Position numbers and translations under genes: made by a program. From an uncultured Armatimonadetes bacterium (lineage in GTDB: Bacteria > Armatimonadota > Armatimonadia > Armatimonadales > Capsulimonadaceae): a stretch of DNA of 64,000 nucleotides. The notes under the pieces were generated by a model, which saw only the letters and a program-made list of their open reading frames with translations, was not told where the DNA came from and searched no databases. This document shows, one piece after another, positions 4,997 through 58,096 of this stretch. The stretch's first letter is position 1. Each line of letters starts with the position of its first letter. Location: assembly GCA_963835235.1 (NCBI GenBank), contig CAWIET010000003.1, forward strand, positions 182,960 through 246,959, given 5' to 3'.

Positions 4997-7678
4997 ATGC
5001 CTGCCCTGCCGACCGGCACCGTCACATTCCTGTTCTCGGATTTGGAAGGCAGCACGCGGCTCTGGGAGGAGCGCGAAGAGGTCATGCCCGACGCGCTGGC
5101 TCGCCATGAGGCCCTCGCCGCTGAAATCTTCACGCGGCACGCGGGCGTTCTGGTGAAAAGCCGGGGCGAAGGCGACAGCTGCTTTGCGGTCTTTGACGAA
5201 GCCTCCGACGCGATTCTGGCGGCCTGCGCGTTTCAGCAGGCATTGATTTCGGAACCCTGGCCGGTCGGCGTCGCCCTGCGCGCGCGCATTGCCCTGCATA
5301 CGGGCGATGCCGAGCCGATCGGCGGCGATTACCTCGGCCCGCCGGTCAACCGGTGCGCCCGTCTGCGCGGCGTGGCACACGGCGGGCAGATTGTGCTGTC
5401 CGAGGCGACCGCCCAACTTGTTCGCGACACGCTCCCTGCCCCCTTCAGCCTGGTTGACCTGCGCGAGCACCGCCTGCGCGACCTGACGCGCCCGGAGCGC
5501 ATCTATCAGCTCACCCATCCGTCCCTGCCCGCCGACTTCCCGCCCCTGGTCACGCAGGACGTTCCGGTTCACAACCTGCCCCAGCCACTCACCAGTTTCG
5601 TGGGGCGCGCGCGGGAGAAAGCCGACGTGCAGCGTTTGCTGCCCCAGAACCGCCTGCTCACGCTGATTGGCACGGGCGGCAGCGGCAAAACGCGCCTGGC
5701 CCTGAGCGTCGCATCCGAACAAACCGGGGATTATGAAGGCGGCGTGTGCCTGGTGGAACTGGCCGCCCTGAGCAACCCGGCGCTCGTGCCTCAGGCGGTC
5801 GCGACGGCGCTCAACATCCGCGAGGCGGCAGGCCAATCCCTCACCGACACCCTGCGTAACACCCTGCGCGAGAAGGCTCGCCTGCTCGTGCTGGATAACT
5901 GCGAGCATCTTTTAGACGCCTGCGCGCGCTTAACAAACACGCTTCTGGGCGGCTGCCCGCGCCTGCGCGTTCTCGCCACAAGCCGTCAGGCGCTGGGCAT
6001 CGCGGGCGAATGCGTTTACCCGGTTCCCCCGCTGATGCCGCCGCTCCCTGCCAGCGCGCGCGCTCCCCTCGCCCCCAACGCGCTGGCCCAAAACGACGCC
6101 GTGCGCCTGTTCATGGAGCGCGCCGCTTTGAGCCAGCCCCATTTCGCATTGACCGCGCACAACGCCCCGCACGTTGCCGGGATTTGCCGCCAGCTGGACG
6201 GCCTGCCGCTCGGCATTGAACTGGCCGCCGCGTGGGTCAAGATGCTGTCCCCGGAGCAGATTGCCCGTCGGCTGCAAGACCGCTTCCGCCTGCTGACCGG
6301 CGGCTCGCGCACCGCCGCGCCGCGCCAGCAGACCATGCAGGCCGCTCTGGACTGGAGTTACGACCTGCTTTCCGACAGCGAGCGCAGCCTGTTTGGGCGC
6401 GTGTCGGTGTTTGCGGGCGGGTGGACATTGGACGCTGCCGAAGCCGTGTGCGCGGGCGATGGCCCCGATGGAACGCACATTGAGGAATGGGACGTGCTGG
6501 ATTTGCTGGCGTCGCTGGTGGAAAAGTCGCTGGTCGTGGCCGATGATGTGGACGGTCAGAAACGCTGCCGCCTGCTGGAAACCCTGCGCCAGTACAGCGA
6601 AGATCGCCAGCGGGAGACCGGCAGCCCGGACGCGATGCGCGCGCGCCACTGCAACTTCTTTCTCGCGCTGGCCGAGCGCGCCGAGCCGGAACTGCGGGGT
6701 GCTAATCAAGCCGAATGGCTGAACACGCTGGAGCGCGAGCACGACAACTTCCGCGTCGTTCTGGGCGACAGCGATTCACAGCATTGCCTGCGTCTGGGCA
6801 TCGCGCTGCACCGGTTCTGGTACGCGCGCGGCTACATTTCCGAAGGGCGCGGCTGGCTGGCCGGGGCGCTTTCCGAAACCGGGGACGCCGCTCTGCCTCT
6901 GCGCGCCAAGGGTCTGAACGCTCTGGGCGTTCTCGCCTGGGCGCAGGCCGATTACGCCGCCGCCTGCGCCTGCCATCAGGAAGCCCTTGCGCTGTTCCAT
7001 CAGCAGCAAGACTCGGCAGGCATTGCCAGAACGCTGATGAATCTAGGCATCGTCTCCGACTACCAGCAGGAGTACGAGCAGGCGAGCGCCTTTTATGACG
7101 AAAGCATCTCCATCTTCCGCGCGCGCGGCGACATGAAATCCGTCGCGCACGTGCTGAATAATCGGGGCGCGCACTTTATTCATCGCAGCGAGCCAGCCGC
7201 CGCCATTCCGTTTCTTCAAGAGAGTCTTGCCATTCGGCAGACATTAAGCGATCAGGCTGGCATCGCGTCCGTGCTTTATGATCTGGGCATGGTGGCCTGC
7301 GAGCAGCAGCAGTGGCCGGAAGCGCGCGCCTCTTTACGGGAAGCCCTGCGTATTCGCCATGCGCTGGGGGACTTACGCAACATCGCCTTTGTGCTGCTGT
7401 ACCTCGCCTGGGTCGAGCAGGCGCTGGGGAGCGGTCTGCGCGCCGCGCGCCTGCTGGGTGCGACAGAAACGGCCTACGAACAGGCCAAAGCGCCCAAGCA
7501 CCCCAACGAGCACGACACGCAGAAACGCATTGCCGCCGCTCTGGGGGACGAGATCGGGGAGGAATATTACGCGCTGCTGTGCAATGAAGGCAAAACGATG
7601 ACAACACAGCAAGCGGTCGCGTATGCACTGGAACTGCCTGCCGGGGAAACAGGAGACGACGACAATGCACCGCATTAA
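4997..7678 (+). CDS. class III adenylate/guanylate cyclase domain fused to a STAND (NB-ARC-like) ATPase and TPR repeats
   Basis: GTVTFLFSDLEGSTRLWEE and RIALHTGDAEP...GPPVNRCARL (cyclase domain). Walker A is LIGTGGSGKTRLAL. The C-terminus carries repeated TPR-like helices (LNALGVLAWAQADYAAACACHQEAL, LMNLGIVSDYQQEYEQA). The start was moved to the ATG at 4997. Confidence 0.8.
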   Translation: MPALPTGTVTFLFSDLEGSTRLWEEREEVMPDALARHEALAAEIFTRHAGVLVKSRGEGDSCFAVFDEASDAILAACAFQQALISEPWPVGVALRARIALHTGDAEPIGGDYLGPPVNRCARLRGVAHGGQIVLSEATAQLVRDTLPAPFSLVDLREHRLRDLTRPERIYQLTHPSLPADFPPLVTQDVPVHNLPQPLTSFVGRAREKADVQRLLPQNRLLTLIGTGGSGKTRLALSVASEQTGDYEGGVCLVELAALSNPALVPQAVATALNIREAAGQSLTDTLRNTLREKARLLVLDNCEHLLDACARLTNTLLGGCPRLRVLATSRQALGIAGECVYPVPPLMPPLPASARAPLAPNALAQNDAVRLFMERAALSQPHFALTAHNAPHVAGICRQLDGLPLGIELAAAWVKMLSPEQIARRLQDRFRLLTGGSRTAAPRQQTMQAALDWSYDLLSDSERSLFGRVSVFAGGWTLDAAEAVCAGDGPDGTHIEEWDVLDLLASLVEKSLVVADDVDGQKRCRLLETLRQYSEDRQRETGSPDAMRARHCNFFLALAERAEPELRGANQAEWLNTLEREHDNFRVVLGDSDSQHCLRLGIALHRFWYARGYISEGRGWLAGALSETGDAALPLRAKGLNALGVLAWAQADYAAACACHQEALALFHQQQDSAGIARTLMNLGIVSDYQQEYEQASAFYDESISIFRARGDMKSVAHVLNNRGAHFIHRSEPAAAIPFLQESLAIRQTLSDQAGIASVLYDLGMVACEQQQWPEARASLREALRIRHALGDLRNIAFVLLYLAWVEQALGSGLRAARLLGATETAYEQAKAPKHPNEHDTQKRIAAALGDEIGEEYYALLCNEGKTMTTQQAVAYALELPAGETGDDDNAPH

Positions 7679-18738: not shown

Positions 18739-19338
18739 TCACCCCAGCCCAATCTGGCACAGACAGCAGCGCGAAACGGGGGACGGGGCAATCAAAACGC
18801 CGCACCCGGCGCAGGGAACCCAGCCGTGCGCCCGTTTCCATTCCGAAGCGCGGGCAAGGCGGGTGAGCGCGTGACGCAGACGGTCGCGGCCTGCTTCGTC
18901 TTCAATGCCGCCGACAGCGGCTTCAATGCGCGCGCGGGCATCGGGAGAAAGCAGCGTGGTTTCCAGTTCGCCGTCGGCGGGCGCGGCGGGCAGAGGCGGT
19001 TCCTTATTCACCGGAGGCGCTTTGGCGCGCGCCAGGCCACTCGCCTTGAAATGCAGGTCGGTGAGAACAGGGCCGCCCAGCGCGAGGTTCAGGCGGCGCA
19101 GAATATCGCCCTTCAGCAAGACCAACTCATTGGCCCACACGCTGTTTTTGACCCGGACAACCAACTCCGTGCCGTTCTGCACGCGCTCTACTTGCGTGAC
19201 TCCCGCCACCTGCGGCCCCACAATCTCCGCCCACAGCGCCTTCGCCAGATGCGGACGCAGTTTGGCGGCTAAATCGTGCGAGCGAAGCAGGCCGTCCAAA
19301 GCGCCGGACGCGGGGGAAATGATGGGAGAACGTCTCAT
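18739..19338 (-). CDS. DUF721 (DciA-type) protein with a C-terminal Cys-rich extension
   Basis: LAKALWAEIVGPQVAGVTQVERVQNGTELVVRVKNSVWANELVLLKGDILRRLN matches the DUF721 core usually found near recF, dnaN or gyrB. The tail has CAGCG...CCLC. Confidence 0.7.
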   Translation of the reverse strand: MRRSPIISPASGALDGLLRSHDLAAKLRPHLAKALWAEIVGPQVAGVTQVERVQNGTELVVRVKNSVWANELVLLKGDILRRLNLALGGPVLTDLHFKASGLARAKAPPVNKEPPLPAAPADGELETTLLSPDARARIEAAVGGIEDEAGRDRLRHALTRLARASEWKRAHGWVPCAGCGVLIAPSPVSRCCLCQIGLG

Positions 19339-20187: not shown

Positions 20188-21318
20188 TTATTGCCGGGCC
20201 ACCTGCCCTGCCGTCACCTCATACACGCAGGCGCGCTCTAAAACGCCTTTGGAGAACGCCCGCAAATTCGTGCAGGACAGAAACGTTTGGGAACCGGCGC
20301 GGGCAGTGAGGTCAAACAAATGGCGGCGGCGGGCATCGTCCAAATCCGACAGCACATCGTCTAACAGCAGCAGGGGCGGCTCTCCGACCAGTTCTTCAAG
20401 GAGTTGCCGCTCCGCCAGTTTCAGCGACAATGCGACCGTGCGCTGCTGCCCCTGCGACCCAAACGCGCGGCAGTCCTGCCCGTTGACGCAGAACAGAATA
20501 TCGTCGCGCTGCGGCCCACGCAAAGTCGTGCCGCGCGCCAGTTCATCCGAAGCCACCGCGTTTAACGCCTCTGAGAAACGAGCGCCAATGGCATCGGCGT
20601 CGGTCAACTCATCCAGCGAAAACGAGGGAACATACGCCACTTGCAGCGTGTCTCGTCCATCGCTGAGGGTGTGATGCACGCCCTCCGCCAGCTGCGACAG
20701 CCGTTCCAGAAACAAACGCCGCCGTTCTATCAAACGCGCCCCATGCTGCACCAGCTGGGCATTCCAGGCGGGCAGAGACCCACGCGCTTCGTGCCCCGCA
20801 CGCCCATCACGCAAATCTCTCAAGAGGCGATTGCGCTGCTCCAATGCCTTGCGGAACGCGCCGAGCGCATACACATAACGAGGGGAAGTTTGGGCAATCT
20901 CCAAGTCCAGAAAGCGGCGGCGCACGGATGGCTCACCCCGAATAATCTCCAGGTCGCCGCTGTCAAACAACACGGCGTTCACCTGCCCAATCACTTCGGC
21001 TAGTTTGGTGTGCCGCACGCCATTGATGCGCGCCGCCTTCTTTTCCGTCTGGGACAGGAGCATCTCCAAAGCGATGTCGGGCGACTGCACGCGCACCACA
21101 TCGGCTCGCACACGCGCGAACGGCTGCTCAAACTGCACCAGTTCGGTGTCTTTGGCCGCCCGTGCCGACTTGCTCGTCGCCAGCACGTACAGGCTCTCTA
21201 ACAGATTGCTCTTGCCCTGCGCGTTGCGCCCGACAAAGATATTCAATCCCTCTCCCGGCTCCACGCGAAGAGAAGCATAGTTGCGAAAGTGTTCCAGTTC
21301 CAGCGACGTAATATGCAT
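20188..21318 (-). CDS. recF: DNA replication and repair protein RecF
   Basis: MHITSLELEHFRNY...FVGRNAQGKSNLLESL (Walker A), signature LSQGQQRTVALSLKLA, Walker B LLLLDDVLSDLD. Confidence 0.95.
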   Translation of the reverse strand: MHITSLELEHFRNYASLRVEPGEGLNIFVGRNAQGKSNLLESLYVLATSKSARAAKDTELVQFEQPFARVRADVVRVQSPDIALEMLLSQTEKKAARINGVRHTKLAEVIGQVNAVLFDSGDLEIIRGEPSVRRRFLDLEIAQTSPRYVYALGAFRKALEQRNRLLRDLRDGRAGHEARGSLPAWNAQLVQHGARLIERRRLFLERLSQLAEGVHHTLSDGRDTLQVAYVPSFSLDELTDADAIGARFSEALNAVASDELARGTTLRGPQRDDILFCVNGQDCRAFGSQGQQRTVALSLKLAERQLLEELVGEPPLLLLDDVLSDLDDARRRHLFDLTARAGSQTFLSCTNLRAFSKGVLERACVYEVTAGQVARQ

Positions 21319-21412
21319 TCACGTTCTCAGGCGAAATGGACTTGCTCTGCGCTCCGCCTCCGAGTCTTTTACCCTTAGATAGAAGAATCTTAATTGGTAG
21401 TAGTAATAGAAG

Positions 21413-21675
21413 TGTGACTCAACTGTGACTCAACGAAACGCACCCATGCGAACGGGACGTTTTCGCCTGCAAACCCTACACATTCACGCTTGCACGAACA
21501 TCGCAGCCGCTGATAATGCTCCGTTTCGCTGAGTCACAAGAGAGTCACACAGTGTGACTCAACGGCACAAAACTGTGACTCAACGCTGCCCACTGTGACT
21601 CTCTTCCACCCTTGAGTCACACTTTCCCACGTTGAGTCACAGTTGAGTCACACTGTGACTCTCAATTGTGACTCA
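21413..21675. repeat. 12 copies of the 9-mer TGAGTCACA/TGTGACTCA (9 perfect, 3 with one mismatch), in both orientations
   Basis: Starts at 21413, 21424, 21553, 21574, 21594, 21654 and 21667 (TGTGACTCA-type on +). Starts at 21530, 21541, 21613, 21633 and 21644 (TGAGTCACA-type on +). Three same-orientation pairs are exactly 11 bp apart. Confidence 0.9.
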
Positions 21676-21700
21676 ATATCTCGCCTTGATATTGTCCCCG

Positions 21701-21820
21701 AAGTCAGGCCCAAGTCGCCCTAAGTTCACGCAAGTCACCGCAAGTCAATGCAAGTTAACGCAAGTGATATCAAGTGAAATGAAGTGATCACAAGTGATCA
21801 CAAGTGAACACAAGGTAAAA
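21701..21820. repeat. about 12 tandem 10-bp units NCAAGTNANN, with AAGT in strict 10-bp phase
   Basis: AAGT at 21701, 21712, 21722, 21732, 21742, 21752, 21762, 21772, 21782, 21792 and 21802, then AAGG at 21812. The units become more AT-rich toward 21820. Confidence 0.9.
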
Positions 21821-21950
21821 ACAGCCTTTGTCTGCCGAAAATCAGCCCGTTTGTCTGCTCCTAAGAGCGAACACAGGCGCCGTTGTCTACTATGCGTTTG
21901 GCCCGGTTGTCAAACACTGTCCCCTTCGCTGTGGACAAGGCCCCCACTCG

Positions 21951-22058
21951 GAAGGGCGACCCTCCCCCCACGTTTAGGGGGAAGGGTAAGACAAGCAAAG
22001 CGCAGCAGGGTTTCCTCCCCCCAAACTTGGGGGGCCGGGGGGGCCGTCCTTCCCCTGC
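21951..22058. repeat. GC-rich palindromic repeat element, copy B; same family as the insert in dapF
   Basis: GAAGGGCGACCCTCCCCCCACGTTTAGGGGGAAGGGTAAGACAA aligns at roughly 80% identity by eye with 61941-61984. It is followed by the hairpin CCCCCCAAACTTGGGGGG. Confidence 0.6.
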
Positions 22059-24854
22059 CTACAGGCTGTATTCAATCACCTTGCGAATGCGAGTCAGCAG
22101 GGCCAGCACTTCCGGGTCGGTCGTCATGTCGTCGCGCAGGCGGGCGTGGGCGTGGACAATCGCTGTGTGGCTTTTGAGGCCAAACGCCGCCGCCAGCGTC
22201 GTCATCGGCACCCCGCTCATCTCCTTGACGAAATACATCGCCACCTGACGCGCATACCCCGCGTCCCCTTTGCCGCGCCGCGCCGAACGCGCCCCGCCTG
22301 TCAGAATCAGTTCCGGCTCAATGCCCATCTGCGCGGCAACGGCATCCACAATCTGGTCAACTGTCGGCCCCGCGCTGGGGCGCGACGCGGGGTAATCGTC
22401 CGGGTGCGCTGATGCGAGCGGCAGGGAAGACGATGGCAGACGCTCCACAAAGTACGATGACAGCACATCGGACGCCAGTTGTTTGGTGACCGGGCTTTTG
22501 GCAAGCGACGCATACGCCATCAGTTTAATCAGCGCGCCCTCCAATGCCCGAATATTGCTTTGGATCAGGTTCGCCATGTACGCAATCACTTCATCCGGGA
22601 TACGCAGATTGTCTAAAATCGCCTTCTTCTGCAAGATCGCCATCCGCATTTCCAGTTCGGGAGGCGCAATGTCGGCAATCAAACCGCCCTCAAAGCGGGT
22701 GCGAAGCCGCTCGTCCATCGTGCGAAGTTCACGCGGAGAGCGGTCGGACGTAATCACAATCTGCCGGTTCATCTGGTGCAGCGTGTTGAACGTGTGAAAG
22801 AACTCTTCTTTGGTCTGCTCTTTGGACGCGATGGTCTGAATGTCGTCTACCAGCCACACGTCTACCGACCGGTACGCCCTGCGAAAATCCTCCGTGCGCT
22901 TGTCCCGCAGCGCCGCAACGTAATGATTGGTGAACGTCTCCCCGCTCACATACGCCACCCGCGCCTGCGGAAGCGCCAGCCGCACCTGATGACCAATCGC
23001 GTGCATGAGATGCGTGTTGTGCTCCCAGAACGTTGTCAGGAACGTCTCATAACCTGGCACTTCAATGGCAACCGTTGGCTCCACGCCCGCAGGCTCCACC
23101 GACACGACCTTCTCCCAGCGCAGTCCGGCGGGGGCTGCCGTATGACGCCACTGTCCCCGATTGGGCCGCGTCGCCGCCACTTGTTCCGCTACGCCTCGCA
23201 CGCGCTCCACCGCGTCTTCCTTGCCAAAGATGCCCACGCGCGCGGTAAACTGAAGCACTTGCGCGGCGGCATGAATGGCAACTGTCCAGGCCCGCACTTT
23301 GGGTTTGTGCGCGATGCGCGACACAATGCCCAGTTTCAGCAGCAACTCCTGCACGTCGCGCGCCAGCCCTTCCGACGCCGAGCAGTAGCCGATTTCCGTT
23401 CGCGGAAGACGGTTGCCCGGACGCTCCGCGCCGCACGCCGCCCAGCCATCGGTGGCGAACAAACGCGACAGGAACAAGGCCAACTGCTCCGGCGGCAGGG
23501 TAAATACAGCGGGCGGAATGCGTTTGTCGCGCGAGTGCTGCCCCATCAAACCGTGCCGTCTCAGCAGGTTTATCACATCATTGCGGCAGTCCTGACCCTG
23601 CGCCACGCGCCCGCGCCGCCCGACAATGCGCCAATCATAGCGGTTGTGCTGAATCAGGCGGCAATTCGTCTGTGCCACGCACTCCTTGAACTCCGCCAAC
23701 TGCGCGTTGTCCTGCTGGCTGAAGCGCACGCCTTGCGTAGTGCCGCCATCGCCAATCAAATACGCCAGCAGCTTCACTTCATGCTCCGGCAGGGATACGG
23801 GAGAGCCAAACGCAGGCAGGCATTCCGTCACCGCGACTAAATCCCCTGCCGCAATCGCGCAAAGGGGCGTCCATCCGCGCACCGCGATGCGCCCAAAGTT
23901 CTTGCCCATATGCCGCACACCCTGCCCCGTCCAGAGTGGGTGCTGTCCGTTGCGCCTAATCCGCCGCCCGCTTTCGGTTTCAATTGCCCACACCGGCTCA
24001 ACGGCATTCCATTCGGCGCGCGCGGCAACGGCCTTTATCTCTTCTTTAGCAAGCGTCAGCAGAGAAAACTCTGTACCCACCAACTCGCCTGCCTGCACCC
24101 GCCGCCCATCCGCCAGGTGCAGGGTTTCCGACGCGGCCACGCACTTTCCCAGGCCGGGATTGCCGTACAAAAACAGTGGGTTATACAGGGTTCCGAGCGC
24201 ACCGGCCACCGCCAGCGCGCCCGCATGAGCGAGCCGGTTGGACTTGCCCACGACAAAGTGCTCAAACGTGTATTTGTCGTTGAGCGGCGCGGCGGCCAGT
24301 TCCAGCAGAAACGGATTGCGCGCGCCTTCGGCAAGCCCCAGCGCGACGGCGGTTCCGCCATTGCCGCCATGCGTGGGCGCGGCGAAGGGAAGCGTCTCTT
24401 GCAGCGGCGCGAGGGCTGTGACAGGCGGCGCAAGCGCCGTCACAGGCGGCTCTGCCAGCGGCGACGCGGCCTGCTGCAAGGGCAGCGGCTTTTCGCCCAG
24501 CAAGGGCTGCACGGACGGGGTGGAAATGACAAACCGAACCTGCACGGCAGGCAGGTCAAGAAACTGCGCCAGCGACGCGCTGAGTATCTGCGCGTACTTC
24601 TTTTCCGCCCATTCCCGCGCAAACGCCGACGGCGCTCCGAGCACCACAATCGTTCCGTCCAAAGAAAGCGGCTTCAGGGGACGCAGAAAGTTGTCAAATG
24701 TCGGCTTGTTGAACTGAGAAGCCAGCGCGCGCAGGGTGCGATCCCACGCTTTACGCAGGGCGATGGCGCTGTCATCTTCACCGAGTTCCAATTGCTGCTC
24801 CTGCGGAGAAGGGTCATCATCGGGCGCGGCAGCATGGGGCGGGCGAATAGTCAC
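22059..24854 (-). CDS. dnaA: chromosomal replication initiator DnaA, containing an intein in the Walker-A loop
   Basis: Domain I/II N-terminus, then FEHFVVGKSNRLAH and LFLYGNPGLGK|[intein]|THLMHAIGH. Further motifs are DVWLVDDIQTIASK (Walker B), FHTFNTL, IVITSDR and domain IV (YARQVAMYFVKEM...FGLKSHTAIVHA). The linker has a PPVTALA duplication. The gene ends in TAG. Confidence 0.95.
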   Translation of the reverse strand: MTIRPPHAAAPDDDPSPQEQQLELGEDDSAIALRKAWDRTLRALASQFNKPTFDNFLRPLKPLSLDGTIVVLGAPSAFAREWAEKKYAQILSASLAQFLDLPAVQVRFVISTPSVQPLLGEKPLPLQQAASPLAEPPVTALAPPVTALAPLQETLPFAAPTHGGNGGTAVALGLAEGARNPFLLELAAAPLNDKYTFEHFVVGKSNRLAHAGALAVAGALGTLYNPLFLYGNPGLGKCVAASETLHLADGRRVQAGELVGTEFSLLTLAKEEIKAVAARAEWNAVEPVWAIETESGRRIRRNGQHPLWTGQGVRHMGKNFGRIAVRGWTPLCAIAAGDLVAVTECLPAFGSPVSLPEHEVKLLAYLIGDGGTTQGVRFSQQDNAQLAEFKECVAQTNCRLIQHNRYDWRIVGRRGRVAQGQDCRNDVINLLRRHGLMGQHSRDKRIPPAVFTLPPEQLALFLSRLFATDGWAACGAERPGNRLPRTEIGYCSASEGLARDVQELLLKLGIVSRIAHKPKVRAWTVAIHAAAQVLQFTARVGIFGKEDAVERVRGVAEQVAATRPNRGQWRHTAAPAGLRWEKVVSVEPAGVEPTVAIEVPGYETFLTTFWEHNTHLMHAIGHQVRLALPQARVAYVSGETFTNHYVAALRDKRTEDFRRAYRSVDVWLVDDIQTIASKEQTKEEFFHTFNTLHQMNRQIVITSDRSPRELRTMDERLRTRFEGGLIADIAPPELEMRMAILQKKAILDNLRIPDEVIAYMANLIQSNIRALEGALIKLMAYASLAKSPVTKQLASDVLSSYFVERLPSSSLPLASAHPDDYPASRPSAGPTVDQIVDAVAAQMGIEPELILTGGARSARRGKGDAGYARQVAMYFVKEMSGVPMTTLAAAFGLKSHTAIVHAHARLRDDMTTDPEVLALLTRIRKVIEYSL
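23016..24143 (-). mobile_element. 376-aa intein with a LAGLIDADG homing-endonuclease domain inserted after Lys237 of DnaA
   Basis: It begins with Cys (GLGK|CVAASETLHLADG) and ends ...TFLTTFWEHN|T, with Thr as the +1 extein residue, which restores GLGKT. The two LAGLIDADG motifs are KLLAYLIGDGG and LFLSRLFATDGWA. A block-B-like segment is NGQHPLWT. Confidence 0.85.
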
Positions 24855-51434: not shown

Positions 51435-52397
51435 TCACACTTTCCCTTGCGCGGACATCTGCCATGTCTGCCGCCACACGGCGCGGAACAATCGGGCCTG
51501 CTCGCGAGCAGCGGGGCGGGTGAGGGCAAGCAGGCTCCACGCTGTAAGCCGCAGGCCCGCGCCGAGCAGGGTCATGGCTTTCAAGAGCGTTCCCTGCACG
51601 CGGCCTCCATAGCGGGTGTAGTAGTAATAGCGGCTCTGATTGTAACTCGCCACCATGCGCGCGCGCGTTTTCCAATCCCGCCCGCTGCTTTCGCCCAGAC
51701 GGTGCCCGATGCGCGCAGACGGCAGAAAGTAAATCGGCCAGCCCGCGCGCCGCAGGCGGATGCAGAAGTCGGTGTCCTCAAAGTACATGAAGTAGGCGGG
51801 GTCAAAGCCCCCGACTTGCTGCCAGGCGTCCCGGCGCACGAACAGGCACGCGCCGCACACCTGCTCCACTTCCCGCGTCTCATTGTAATCCCAGTGGGTC
51901 ATGGTGTAGCCGCCCGTTATCTTGTTGCGCGGCAAGAGTTTGTGCAGATGGGTCTGCTCCCAGAATACAGCGCCTAAAGTCGGGTCGGTGGCGCAGGACG
52001 CCTGCGTGGAGCCATCGGGCAACACTAATTGCGCCCCGACCGCGCCGACTTTCGGGTGCGCGTCCAGAAAGTCGCGCATGGCCAACAACGCTCCCGGCTG
52101 CACTTCCGTGTCGGAGTTGAGCACAAAGACATATCGCCCGCGCGCGTTTTGCAGCGCCACATTGTTGGCGCGCCCGTAGCCCAGATTGCCGCCCGTGCGA
52201 AGCAGGCGCACCCCGCTGAACTCCGCTTCCACCATCTCCGGGCTGCCGTCCGCGCTGCCGTTATCGGCCACGGTAACTTCCATCACGGCTTCGCCTTCGG
52301 CGCGGCGGGCTTCCAGCGAGCGCAGGCAGGCGCGCAGAGCGTCACACGTATTATACGACACAATCGCGATGGAAATCTCCACGTTGGGGTCGTTCAT
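51435..52397 (-). CDS. GT2-family glycosyltransferase
   Basis: ISIAIVSYNTCDALRACLRSL, VADNGSADGS and FMYFEDTDFCIR. Confidence 0.85.
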   Translation of the reverse strand: MNDPNVEISIAIVSYNTCDALRACLRSLEARRAEGEAVMEVTVADNGSADGSPEMVEAEFSGVRLLRTGGNLGYGRANNVALQNARGRYVFVLNSDTEVQPGALLAMRDFLDAHPKVGAVGAQLVLPDGSTQASCATDPTLGAVFWEQTHLHKLLPRNKITGGYTMTHWDYNETREVEQVCGACLFVRRDAWQQVGGFDPAYFMYFEDTDFCIRLRRAGWPIYFLPSARIGHRLGESSGRDWKTRARMVASYNQSRYYYYTRYGGRVQGTLLKAMTLLGAGLRLTAWSLLALTRPAAREQARLFRAVWRQTWQMSAQGKV

Positions 52398-57798: not shown

Positions 57799-57884
57799 TG
57801 GTGCCGAGGAAGAGACTCGAACTCTCACAGGGTTTCCCCCACAGCGACCTCAACGCTGCGCGTATACCATTTCGCCACCTCGGC
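57799..57884 (-). tRNA. tRNA-Leu (GAG), CCA encoded
   Basis: Reverse complement GCCGAGGTGGCGAAATGGTATACGCGCAGCGTTGAGGTCGCTGTGGGGGAAACCCTGTGAGAGTTCGAGTCTCTTCCTCGGCACCA. It has a long variable arm and the anticodon loop TTGAGGT. Confidence 0.9.
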
Positions 57885-58027
57885 GGGCACAGGGGACATT
57901 CTACCCGCCCCGCCGCCGCCCTGTCAAGAACCCGTTACCAATGCCCCCGCAACACGCTCCTCATGCCAAAGCACTGGCAGCAGCAGAGCAGTCATAAATC
58001 AACATAGGGCAAACGAAAGCGTTCCCA

Positions 58028-58096
58028 TAGGCTTTTAATAGGCTTTTAATAGGCTTTTAATAGGCTTTTAATAGGCTTTTAATAGGCTTTTAATAG
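58028..58096. repeat. perfect 11-bp tandem repeat TAGGCTTTTAA x6 plus a partial copy
   Basis: Direct reading: units start at 58028, 58039, 58050, 58061, 58072 and 58083, then TAG. Confidence 0.95.

Follow-up and report, generated by a model that had tools for sequence, protein, structure and literature searches.

The 740-bp non-coding gap between the genes dnaA and recF (positions 21319-22058 of the window, i.e. of the whole 64-kb stretch of DNA that was analyzed) is proposed to serve as oriC, the chromosomal origin of replication, in a bacterium of the family Capsulimonadaceae (Armatimonadota), and the GAGTCAC-containing 9-mers repeated in this gap are proposed to be its lineage-specific DnaA boxes. 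Based on sequence comparisons, we assign this interpretation a probability of approximately 0.8. A divergent class of DnaA boxes at oriC had been suggested for this locus in the original prediction, and the suggestion is supported by the anatomy of the gap, including a box-trio-AT-rich layout that matches canonical origin modules, by the conservation of the array across the family, and by the covariation of the boxes with domain IV of DnaA. The searched literature defines no origin in Armatimonadota, and searches for Armatimonadetes or Capsulimonas origins gave nothing on a GAGTCAC motif; if the oriC interpretation holds, the gap would contain the first origin defined for this phylum, within the literature searched.

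The 7-mer GAGTCAC occurs 14 times on both strands of the window versus 4.5 +/- 1.9 copies expected, with 14 or more copies obtained in 0 of 100 shuffles, and 12 of the 14 copies fall within positions 21414-21674. The count over both strands agrees with the original prediction of twelve cores in 263 bp of non-coding DNA (21413-21675), of which nine belong to perfect copies of the 9-mer TGAGTCACA and the other three to AGAGTCACA; the frequent extension of the 9-mer that had been described is seen in six copies, which reach GTTGAGTCACA. Seven 9-mers are located on the minus strand (starts at 21413, 21424, 21553, 21574, 21594, 21654, and 21667) and five on the plus strand (21530, 21541, 21613, 21633, and 21644), so that both orientations are indeed in use, and the three same-orientation pairs separated by exactly 11 bp were recovered as 21413/21424, 21530/21541, and 21633/21644. 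The more general pattern WGWGTCACA has 12 sites in the 64 kb, all of them inside the 263-bp span and none elsewhere. Outside the gap, a single other GAGTCAC had been mentioned; in fact there are two (19196 and 38032), neither of which is part of a full 9-mer.

Six of the nine positions of TGAGTCACA match the canonical DnaA box TTATCCACA, as previously claimed, but position 5 is mismatched in addition to positions 2 and 4. The working consensus of DnaA boxes in E. coli is TTWTNCACA (PMC5043019), and the new box departs from it at two positions only, by G for T at positions 2 and 4. When a canonical box is defined as TTATCCACA with at most two mismatches, TGAGTCACA with its three mismatches falls outside the definition; this is still compatible with an origin, given that Thermotoga and Epsilonproteobacteria have accepted species-specific boxes. 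A scan of the window for TTWTNCACA with at most one mismatch yielded 58 scattered sites, only one of them in the gap, and no cluster of canonical boxes anywhere, and hence no rival box cluster for DnaA. Judged from its sequence, the locus appears to be a variant-box origin that has the structural features of an origin save the canonical box.

The genes around the gap were confirmed by Pfam to be those named in the original prediction. On one side lies recF (20188..21318, minus strand; Pfam SMC_N/AAA_15/AAA_23), with 72-81% identical RecF proteins in Capsulimonadaceae genomes, followed by an open reading frame (ORF) of 280 aa that matched no Pfam family and by the DciA/DUF721 gene (18739-19338, minus strand). 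On the other side lies dnaA (22059..24854, minus strand), identified by Pfam, translation, and tblastn and encoding a 931-aa protein, which is interrupted inside its Walker A motif (GLGK/C...HN/T) by a 376-aa LAGLIDADG intein (23016-24143). Thus, a cluster of 12 candidate initiator boxes is located between dnaA and recF with dciA nearby.

The part of the gap closest to recF has the organization of a DnaA-dependent unwinding module. Two tandem TGAGTCACA boxes on the minus strand (21413-21421 and 21424-21432, 11 bp start to start) are adjoined by a DnaA-trio run on the plus strand (21398..21412), 5'-TAGTAGTAATAGAAG-3', i.e. 3'-GAA GAT AAT GAT GAT-5' in the direction leading away from the box; the complementary CTTCTATTACTACTA is immediately next to the proximal box. 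Runs of CTA and TTA are the complement of DnaA-trios (3'-GAT-5'). Read from 21432 down to 21398, the module is TGAGTCACA-GT-TGAGTCACA-CTT-CTA-TTA-CTA-CTA, and it continues into an AT-rich stretch (21355..21412; 62% AT versus approximately 38% for the window), which is the presumed DNA-unwinding element and also the recF leader. The start codon of recF is approximately 95 bp from the unwinding module. Both CACA ends of the tandem boxes face the trios, and the two boxes are positioned as DnaA-boxes #6 and #7 of the basal unwinding system, whose conservation throughout the bacteria has been described (Richardson 2016/2019; Pelliciari 2021, PMC8287927). The published search rule for that system asks for three or more NAN trios no farther than 16 bp from a box; the boxes are most often tandem, and spacers of 10-13 bp, measured from the better box, are the most frequent (PMC8287927). 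The layout in the window, where 11 bp separate the upstream box from the first trio, agrees with this rule. In B. subtilis, the DnaA boxes are located 5' of the trio complement, which is 5'-CTACTATTACTTCTACTA-3' (PMC10201434 and a 2021 preprint). The telling part of this anatomy is found just beyond the coordinates 21413-21675 of the original prediction. A second CTATTACTACTA at 51619 was considered as a trio run and rejected as a chance occurrence, being located in Tyr-rich coding sequence without boxes in its vicinity. Beyond the proximal pair, a spacer of approximately 100 bp with lineage-specific sequence (21433..21529) leads to a distal cluster (21530..21675) where ten WGAGTCACA boxes lie in either orientation and which is the presumed DnaA assembly region.

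When the same gap was compared in related genomes, a check named in the original prediction, the array was present in all 28 relatives examined, including the cultured type species Capsulimonas corticalis. The dnaA gene is directly upstream of recF in the 22 RecF-matched Capsulimonadaceae loci in which dnaA was detected upstream, and about half of these 22 dnaA genes contain the intein according to tblastn with extein and intein sequences. Sites with the GTCAC core number 9-22 per gap of 370-1040 bp versus approximately 1.6 per kb in the flanking DNA. When read on the strand of recF, almost every gap contains the same module, consisting of two or three co-oriented boxes, a spacer of 2-4 nt, CTAYTACTACTAY, and AT-rich DNA with TAAGANTC, and the trio run adjoining the boxes in nearly all gaps is CTAYTACTACTA; a few gaps, e.g. 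that of L007, have one co-oriented box at the module. The order and orientation of these elements are identical in the six Firmicute control loci, where TTATCCACA-type boxes are followed by a short GC-rich spacer and CTACTACTAC; because of this match, the new 9-mer can be said to fill the DnaA-box slot of a known unwinding module. In one relative, L049, dnaA is not adjacent to recF, so the proposed origin is not always linked to dnaA; in L048-L051, the sequences preceding dnaA contain no box arrays and look like ordinary promoters.

The composition of the window is regarded as uninformative rather than contrary. The GC-skew check that had been proposed, as available on 64 kb, gives the origin interpretation no support: the cumulative skew calculated in 2-kb bins over the window has no minimum at the gap and falls on both sides of 21.5 kb, the third-position skew of minus-strand genes is +0.06 to the left and +0.05 to the right of the gap, and the only strong outlier is a block of plus-strand genes at 58-63 kb. 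To the right of the gap, 29 of 40 genes on a crude gene map point toward it, but most of them belong to a single polysaccharide biosynthesis cluster of approximately 30 kb, and because this cluster dominates, the run of gene orientations was not counted as strong evidence. These observations bear on the possibility that DnaA does bind the 9-mers, while the locus is a titrating or regulatory cluster (similar to datA or DARS, or used by DnaA to control recF transcription) and the origin is located elsewhere. Neither skew nor gene orientation switches at the gap, and the array is directly upstream of recF. In Fimbriimonas, another member of Armatimonadota, the skew is jagged, no DnaA boxes are found at dnaA, and the origin predicted from skew is approximately 100 kb from dnaA (PMC4072686). 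Nevertheless, the evidence from skew is weak, with a single gene cluster dominating it, and a titration site has no need for the box-trio-AT-rich module that nearly all relatives keep in the canonical orientation and that stays with recF even where dnaA has moved (L024 with L050). We consider a non-origin cluster of DnaA boxes improbable.

Further evidence for DnaA as the cognate protein was obtained from the comparison of its DNA-binding domain. Domain IV of the window protein can be aligned only weakly with solved structures (31.6 bits to B. subtilis 8BTG, with lower scores for E. coli 1J1V, M. tuberculosis 3PVP, and Aquifex 2HCB). The recognition helix starts with DHTTV in all four solved DnaA proteins and reads FGLKSHTAIVHAH in the window protein (codons at 22146..22184, minus strand). 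In E. coli numbering, the helix has the changes G431L, R432K, D433S, and T436A, accompanied by P423T in helix 4, and in the family D433 is replaced by S or N. The window protein retains H434, T435, H439, and an arginine aligned with R399, where the alignment is less certain. The base-contacting positions of DnaA are 399, 423, 432-435, and 438-439 (PMC5043019, PMC7561715), and the D433-H434 pair has been described as highly conserved in other bacteria (PMC5043019). By their helices, 120 DnaA homologues were divided into three groups: Capsulimonadaceae proteins with K-[S/N/T]-H-[T/S]-A (62-77% identity to the query), a subclade of this family with K-N-R-T-A-V, i.e. with H434R (67-75%), and other Armatimonadota-like sequences (46-59%), whose helices range from partly altered (..ISHSA, VDHSA) to the canonical GGRDH[TS]TV, the latter at about 46-53% identity.

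The boxes differ along with these helices. In the 23 genomes with H434, 334 sites define the family box profile W-G-W-G-T-C-A-C-A, and 69 further sites were collected from the five genomes of the H434R clade (L052-L056), all of which retain the dnaA-gap-recF layout and the box-trio module. The H434R boxes read GAGTCAC-G, with G at position 9 in 57 of 69 sites and A in 3; by locus, from L052 to L056, this G is found in 9/13, 12/16, 15/15, 16/16, and 5/9 sites. Since the H434R clade is monophyletic in the RecF tree and sister to the lineage of the window, the joint H434R and A9G shift is one evolutionary event in which nearly every origin box was converted together. In Capsulimonas, with the helix K-N-H-S (T435S), position 1 of the box is C or G instead of T or A. 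In the outgroup genome OY969427.1 (L024/L050), DnaA keeps D433 and has S435 and S438 as in Epsilonproteobacteria; its boxes upstream of recF have a TTCAC core (8 in 450 bp versus 0.7 expected) and are followed by ATGATGATGATTATG trinucleotide repeats and AT-rich DNA, with dnaA located 0.6 Mb away. TTCAC is the box core of Epsilonproteobacteria (PMC5043019). Based on these comparisons, the box sequence co-varies with DnaA residues 433, 434, and 435, although each covariation is a single event, and other lineage-specific changes would correlate equally well. In the searched literature, neither G at positions 2 and 4 together with the loss of D433 nor the H434R and A9G pair is reported.

The box profile and its covariation with DnaA also bear on the suggestion that the 9-mers are iteron-like sites for a second, dimeric protein or transcription factor recognizing TGAGTCA, with DnaA acting on other, weaker sites. 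This sequence is a perfect 7-bp palindrome, and the sites occur in both orientations, including head-to-head pairs such as 21644 on the plus strand with 21654 on the minus strand. A dimeric binder, which the original prediction had offered as an alternative, is not supported by the pattern of conservation: over the 334 sites, the left T of the palindrome at position 1 is variable (T in 213 and A in 99; 0.74 bits), whereas the A that follows GTCAC at position 9, outside the palindrome, is conserved in 306 sites (92%, with G in 20; 1.5 bits). Position 3 is A or T, and in one large clade the distal boxes are mostly GTGTCACA. As the profile shows no two-fold symmetry, the palindrome is regarded as incidental and the site as asymmetric like a DnaA box. 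Moreover, many functional-looking boxes (AGAGTCACA, CGAGTCACA, or TGTGTCACA) break the palindrome, the boxes hold the DnaA-box slot beside the trios, their changes track those in the DnaA helix, and the window contains no other box cluster that DnaA could use. The neighborhood also offers no conserved candidate gene for such a protein, the 280-aa ORF being replaced by different genes in C. corticalis. A second origin-binding protein as the main ligand of the array is highly improbable.

The same boxes contribute to an unusual distribution of GANTC sites. The gap of 740 bp contains 14 of these sites versus 41 in the other 63 kb of the window, where controls of the same composition have 144-160 per 64 kb; GANTC is 3.6-fold rarer outside the gap than in these controls. 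The motif is enriched at the proposed origin and depleted elsewhere in the window, as in methylation-controlled origins. The gaps of the relatives contain 8-31 GANTC sites each, 1-20 of which lie outside the boxes (20 in L015/L016), with little depletion outside the gap. Every trio-proximal DnaA box in the family holds GAGTC, and two AAGANTC sites in the AT-rich stretch (GANTC at 21362-21366 and 21385-21389 in the window) are kept in all relatives with a free middle base. No DPPY/NPPY-type methyltransferase signature was detected in any frame of the window, and the window contains no identifiable SeqA-like protein, methyltransferase, or CtrA box; CtrA-type TTAA-N7-TTAA sites were seen only within an 11-bp tandem repeat at 58 kb that is unrelated, and were rejected.

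It is scarcely probable that the array consists primarily of GANTC (GAGTC) methylation sites for a methyltransferase or sensor with the extended 9-mer being secondary, since this would explain the depletion outside the gap, the abundance of GANTC in related gaps even outside the boxes, and the free middle base of the AAGANTC sites, but not a conservation that covers the full WGWGTCACA, well past GANTC, or the mostly GTGTCACA distal boxes of one large clade, which lack GANTC at unchanged positions, and the window has no methyltransferase signature in its favor. GANTC methylation would more fittingly be a further layer added to the oriC interpretation than a competitor of it, and the distribution of the sites suggests that GANTC as such may be recognized at the origin in addition to the boxes, either through methylation or through a protein that reads it. 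A further step, by which the DnaA box itself would carry a methylation switch and its full or hemi-methylated state would gate DnaA binding or re-firing, is tentative and, in our estimate, unlikely. If true, origin control of the Dam/SeqA kind would have been invented independently, via a CcrM- or HinfI-type methyltransferase, in a phylum without any characterized origin. As in oriC of E. coli (GATC/SeqA) and Cori of Caulobacter (GANTC/CcrM), a short methylatable palindrome is concentrated at the proposed origin and under-represented elsewhere in the window; in contrast to both of these methylation-marked origins, GANTC is here inside the initiator box.

Under the oriC interpretation, the following mechanism can be proposed by analogy with the basal unwinding system of B. 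subtilis. Domain IV of DnaA would bind the asymmetric 9-mer WGWGTCACA, with G at box positions 2 and 4 presumably going together with P423T, R432K, and D433S/N in the protein. The ten distal boxes (21530-21675) would gather DnaA, and the tandem boxes (21413-21432) would steer the DnaA-ATP oligomer onto the adjoining DnaA-trios (21398-21412, plus strand). The AT-rich DNA toward recF (21355-21412) would then open, followed by loading of a DciA-dependent helicase. The sequences themselves show the anatomy of the gap, its conservation, its agreement with canonical modules, and the covariation of protein and DNA; binding of DnaA, unwinding, and origin firing at the gap are what we infer.

The closest counterpart of the proposed origin is the basal unwinding system in incC of B. 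subtilis oriC, which shares the tandem co-oriented boxes, the short spacer, the trinucleotide run, the AT-rich DNA, and the location of the module immediately downstream of dnaA. The two loci differ in the box (WGWGTCACA versus TTATCCACA in B. subtilis), in the neighboring gene (dnaN is absent from the window locus, and the module abuts recF), and in the helicase operator (DciA versus DnaD/DnaB/DnaI). With Epsilonproteobacteria, e.g. Helicobacter pylori with the box TCATTCACN, the locus shares T at box position 5, K at the position of R432, and a box variant that goes together with substitutions at the N-terminal end of helix 5 (PMC5043019). The Armatimonadota outgroup L024/L050 shares with them S435, S438, and the TTCAC core, whereas Capsulimonadaceae are distinguished from them by G at box positions 4 (GTCAC) and 2 and by the replacement of D433 by S or N, with R at 434 in one clade. 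As far as quoted in PMC6669920 and PMC7561715, Ozaki 2006 reported the 12-mer AAACCTACCACC as the DnaA box of Thermotoga maritima, where nearly all contact residues are changed; this is a precedent, within the scope of those quotations, for a joint change of domain IV contacts and box. Unlike in Thermotoga, the present box is still a 9-mer with CACA, and R399, H434, T435, and H439 are retained. Finally, many copies of a short motif in non-coding DNA beside an initiator gene resemble plasmid iteron origins, but the units are here 9 bp long and present in both orientations, versus direct repeats of 17-22 bp in iterons, and the initiator is DnaA, with no Rep gene, in a chromosomal locus that is syntenic across the family; the locus is not an iteron origin by these features.

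The proposed boxes have practical consequences for the analysis of Capsulimonadaceae, a little-studied family of soil bacteria in which even the DnaA of C. corticalis is labeled as a hypothetical protein at NCBI. A perfect-box search for TTATCCACA with at most two mismatches would miss these boxes; in particular, they are outside the published search program for basal unwinding systems, because three mismatches exceed its two-mismatch rule (PMC8287927). The profile supplies species-specific boxes for origin-prediction tools, and the comparison shows a box-trio unwinding module that is maintained as its box sequence drifts. The lineages form a natural series of DnaA specificities, from D433 with TTCAC through S/N433 with GTCAC to H434R with the change of position 9 from A to G, which opens the code of DnaA-DNA recognition to direct testing with a small number of proteins and oligonucleotides. 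The variants to be compared are TGAGTCACA, TGTGTCACA, TGAGTCACG, the TTCAC-core box, and TTATCCACA. If the interpretation is true, DnaA with H434R should favor GAGTCACG over GAGTCACA, and the substitution S433D should shift the preference to T at position 4.

The remaining part of the gap, toward dnaA, contains several minor features. The Rfam search of the gap matched no RNA family, and the scan for promoter and terminator consensus sequences gave nothing informative. Short repeats of the TTGTC type (TTTGTCTGC twice, GTTGTCTAC, and GTTGTCAAA) are located at 21817..21938 and were absent from those gaps of relatives that were inspected by eye; the only canonical-like box of the gap, TTGTCCACA, is at 21930-21938 on the minus strand. 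At 21697..21816 on the plus strand, an array of approximately 12 units was observed in which AAGT recurs with a strict 10-bp period (CAAGTSAnnn) and the units resemble degenerate boxes; among 28 gaps, it was found in the genome of the window only. Two GC-rich hairpins formed by inverted repeats (21964..22034, minus strand) lie just past the stop codon of dnaA; they were not called by the consensus terminator scan because they have no T-run, and they are probably the transcription stop for dnaA.

In the 63 kb of the window outside the non-coding dnaA-recF interval (21319-22058, hereafter the gap), the GANTC motif occurs at 41 sites, compared with 144-160 sites per 64 kb in controls of the same composition. 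This strong depletion is much weaker in the related genomes. The scarcity of GANTC elsewhere, set against 14 sites within the gap itself, suggests that this genome encodes a methyltransferase or restriction system specific for GANTC. Two sites of the extended form AAGANTC (GANTC at 21362-21366 and 21385-21389) are located in the AT-rich leader of recF, and both are kept at the same positions in all the relatives compared (loci L001-L056), while the middle base may be A, C, G or T. Conservation of AAGANTC with a free middle base is the pattern that would be expected for GANTC-specific recognition.

The region between the cluster of GAGTCAC-core boxes and the end of dnaA is occupied by an array of AAGT tetramers with the repeat unit CAAGTSAnnn (21697-21816), in which 10-12 occurrences follow each other at an exact spacing of 10 bp. 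Some of these units, e.g. CAAGTCACC, are similar to degenerate boxes. Among 28 related gaps, the array is present in this genome only; it could bind DnaA with low affinity, form bent DNA or have expanded recently.

In the more distant Armatimonadota genome OY969427.1, a cluster of TTCAC-core boxes, ATGATGATGATTATG and AT-rich DNA precede recF (L024, positions 5700-6000; L050), and dnaA is located approximately 0.6 Mb away from recF and this cluster; the linkage of the origin-like module is to recF rather than to dnaA. In a genome with the H434R-type DnaA recognition helix (L049, protein P0010), convergent genes start at most 20 bp after dnaA, a glycosyltransferase cluster lies farther on, and recF is absent from the locus. 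The dnaA-recF linkage was lost at least once within the family Capsulimonadaceae. In another Capsulimonadaceae contig (L013, positions 1-140), GTTAAGG/GTTAACG repeats stand in place of the distal boxes; nevertheless, the trio-proximal GAGTCACA is retained.

The dnaA gene contains a LAGLIDADG intein of 376 aa (23016-24143, minus strand) inserted in the Walker A motif (GLGK|C...HN|T). A DnaA intein is carried by about 10 of 22 related loci, and the copies in L002 and L020 are devoid of the middle endonuclease part, the kind of patchy distribution that characterizes mobile inteins. The DnaA protein of the Capsulimonas corticalis type strain (CCAX7_13230; P0036, locus L048) is labeled in NCBI as 'hypothetical protein', although Pfam recognizes in it the N-terminal, ATPase and C-terminal domains of DnaA.

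Upstream of tRNA-Leu (57799-57884, minus strand), the intergenic region at a point of divergent gene orientation contains 6.4 perfect tandem copies of the 11-bp unit ATAGGCTTTTA (58027-58096). This repeat has no DnaA-type boxes nearby and gives rise to five TTAA-N7-TTAA matches. The origin region is adjoined by a polysaccharide biosynthesis cluster of approximately 30 kb (27746-56387), with almost all genes on the minus strand, encoding glycosyltransferases, DegT aminotransferases, UDP-GlcNAc 2-epimerase, a cytidylyltransferase, a sulfotransferase and an ABC-2 exporter.
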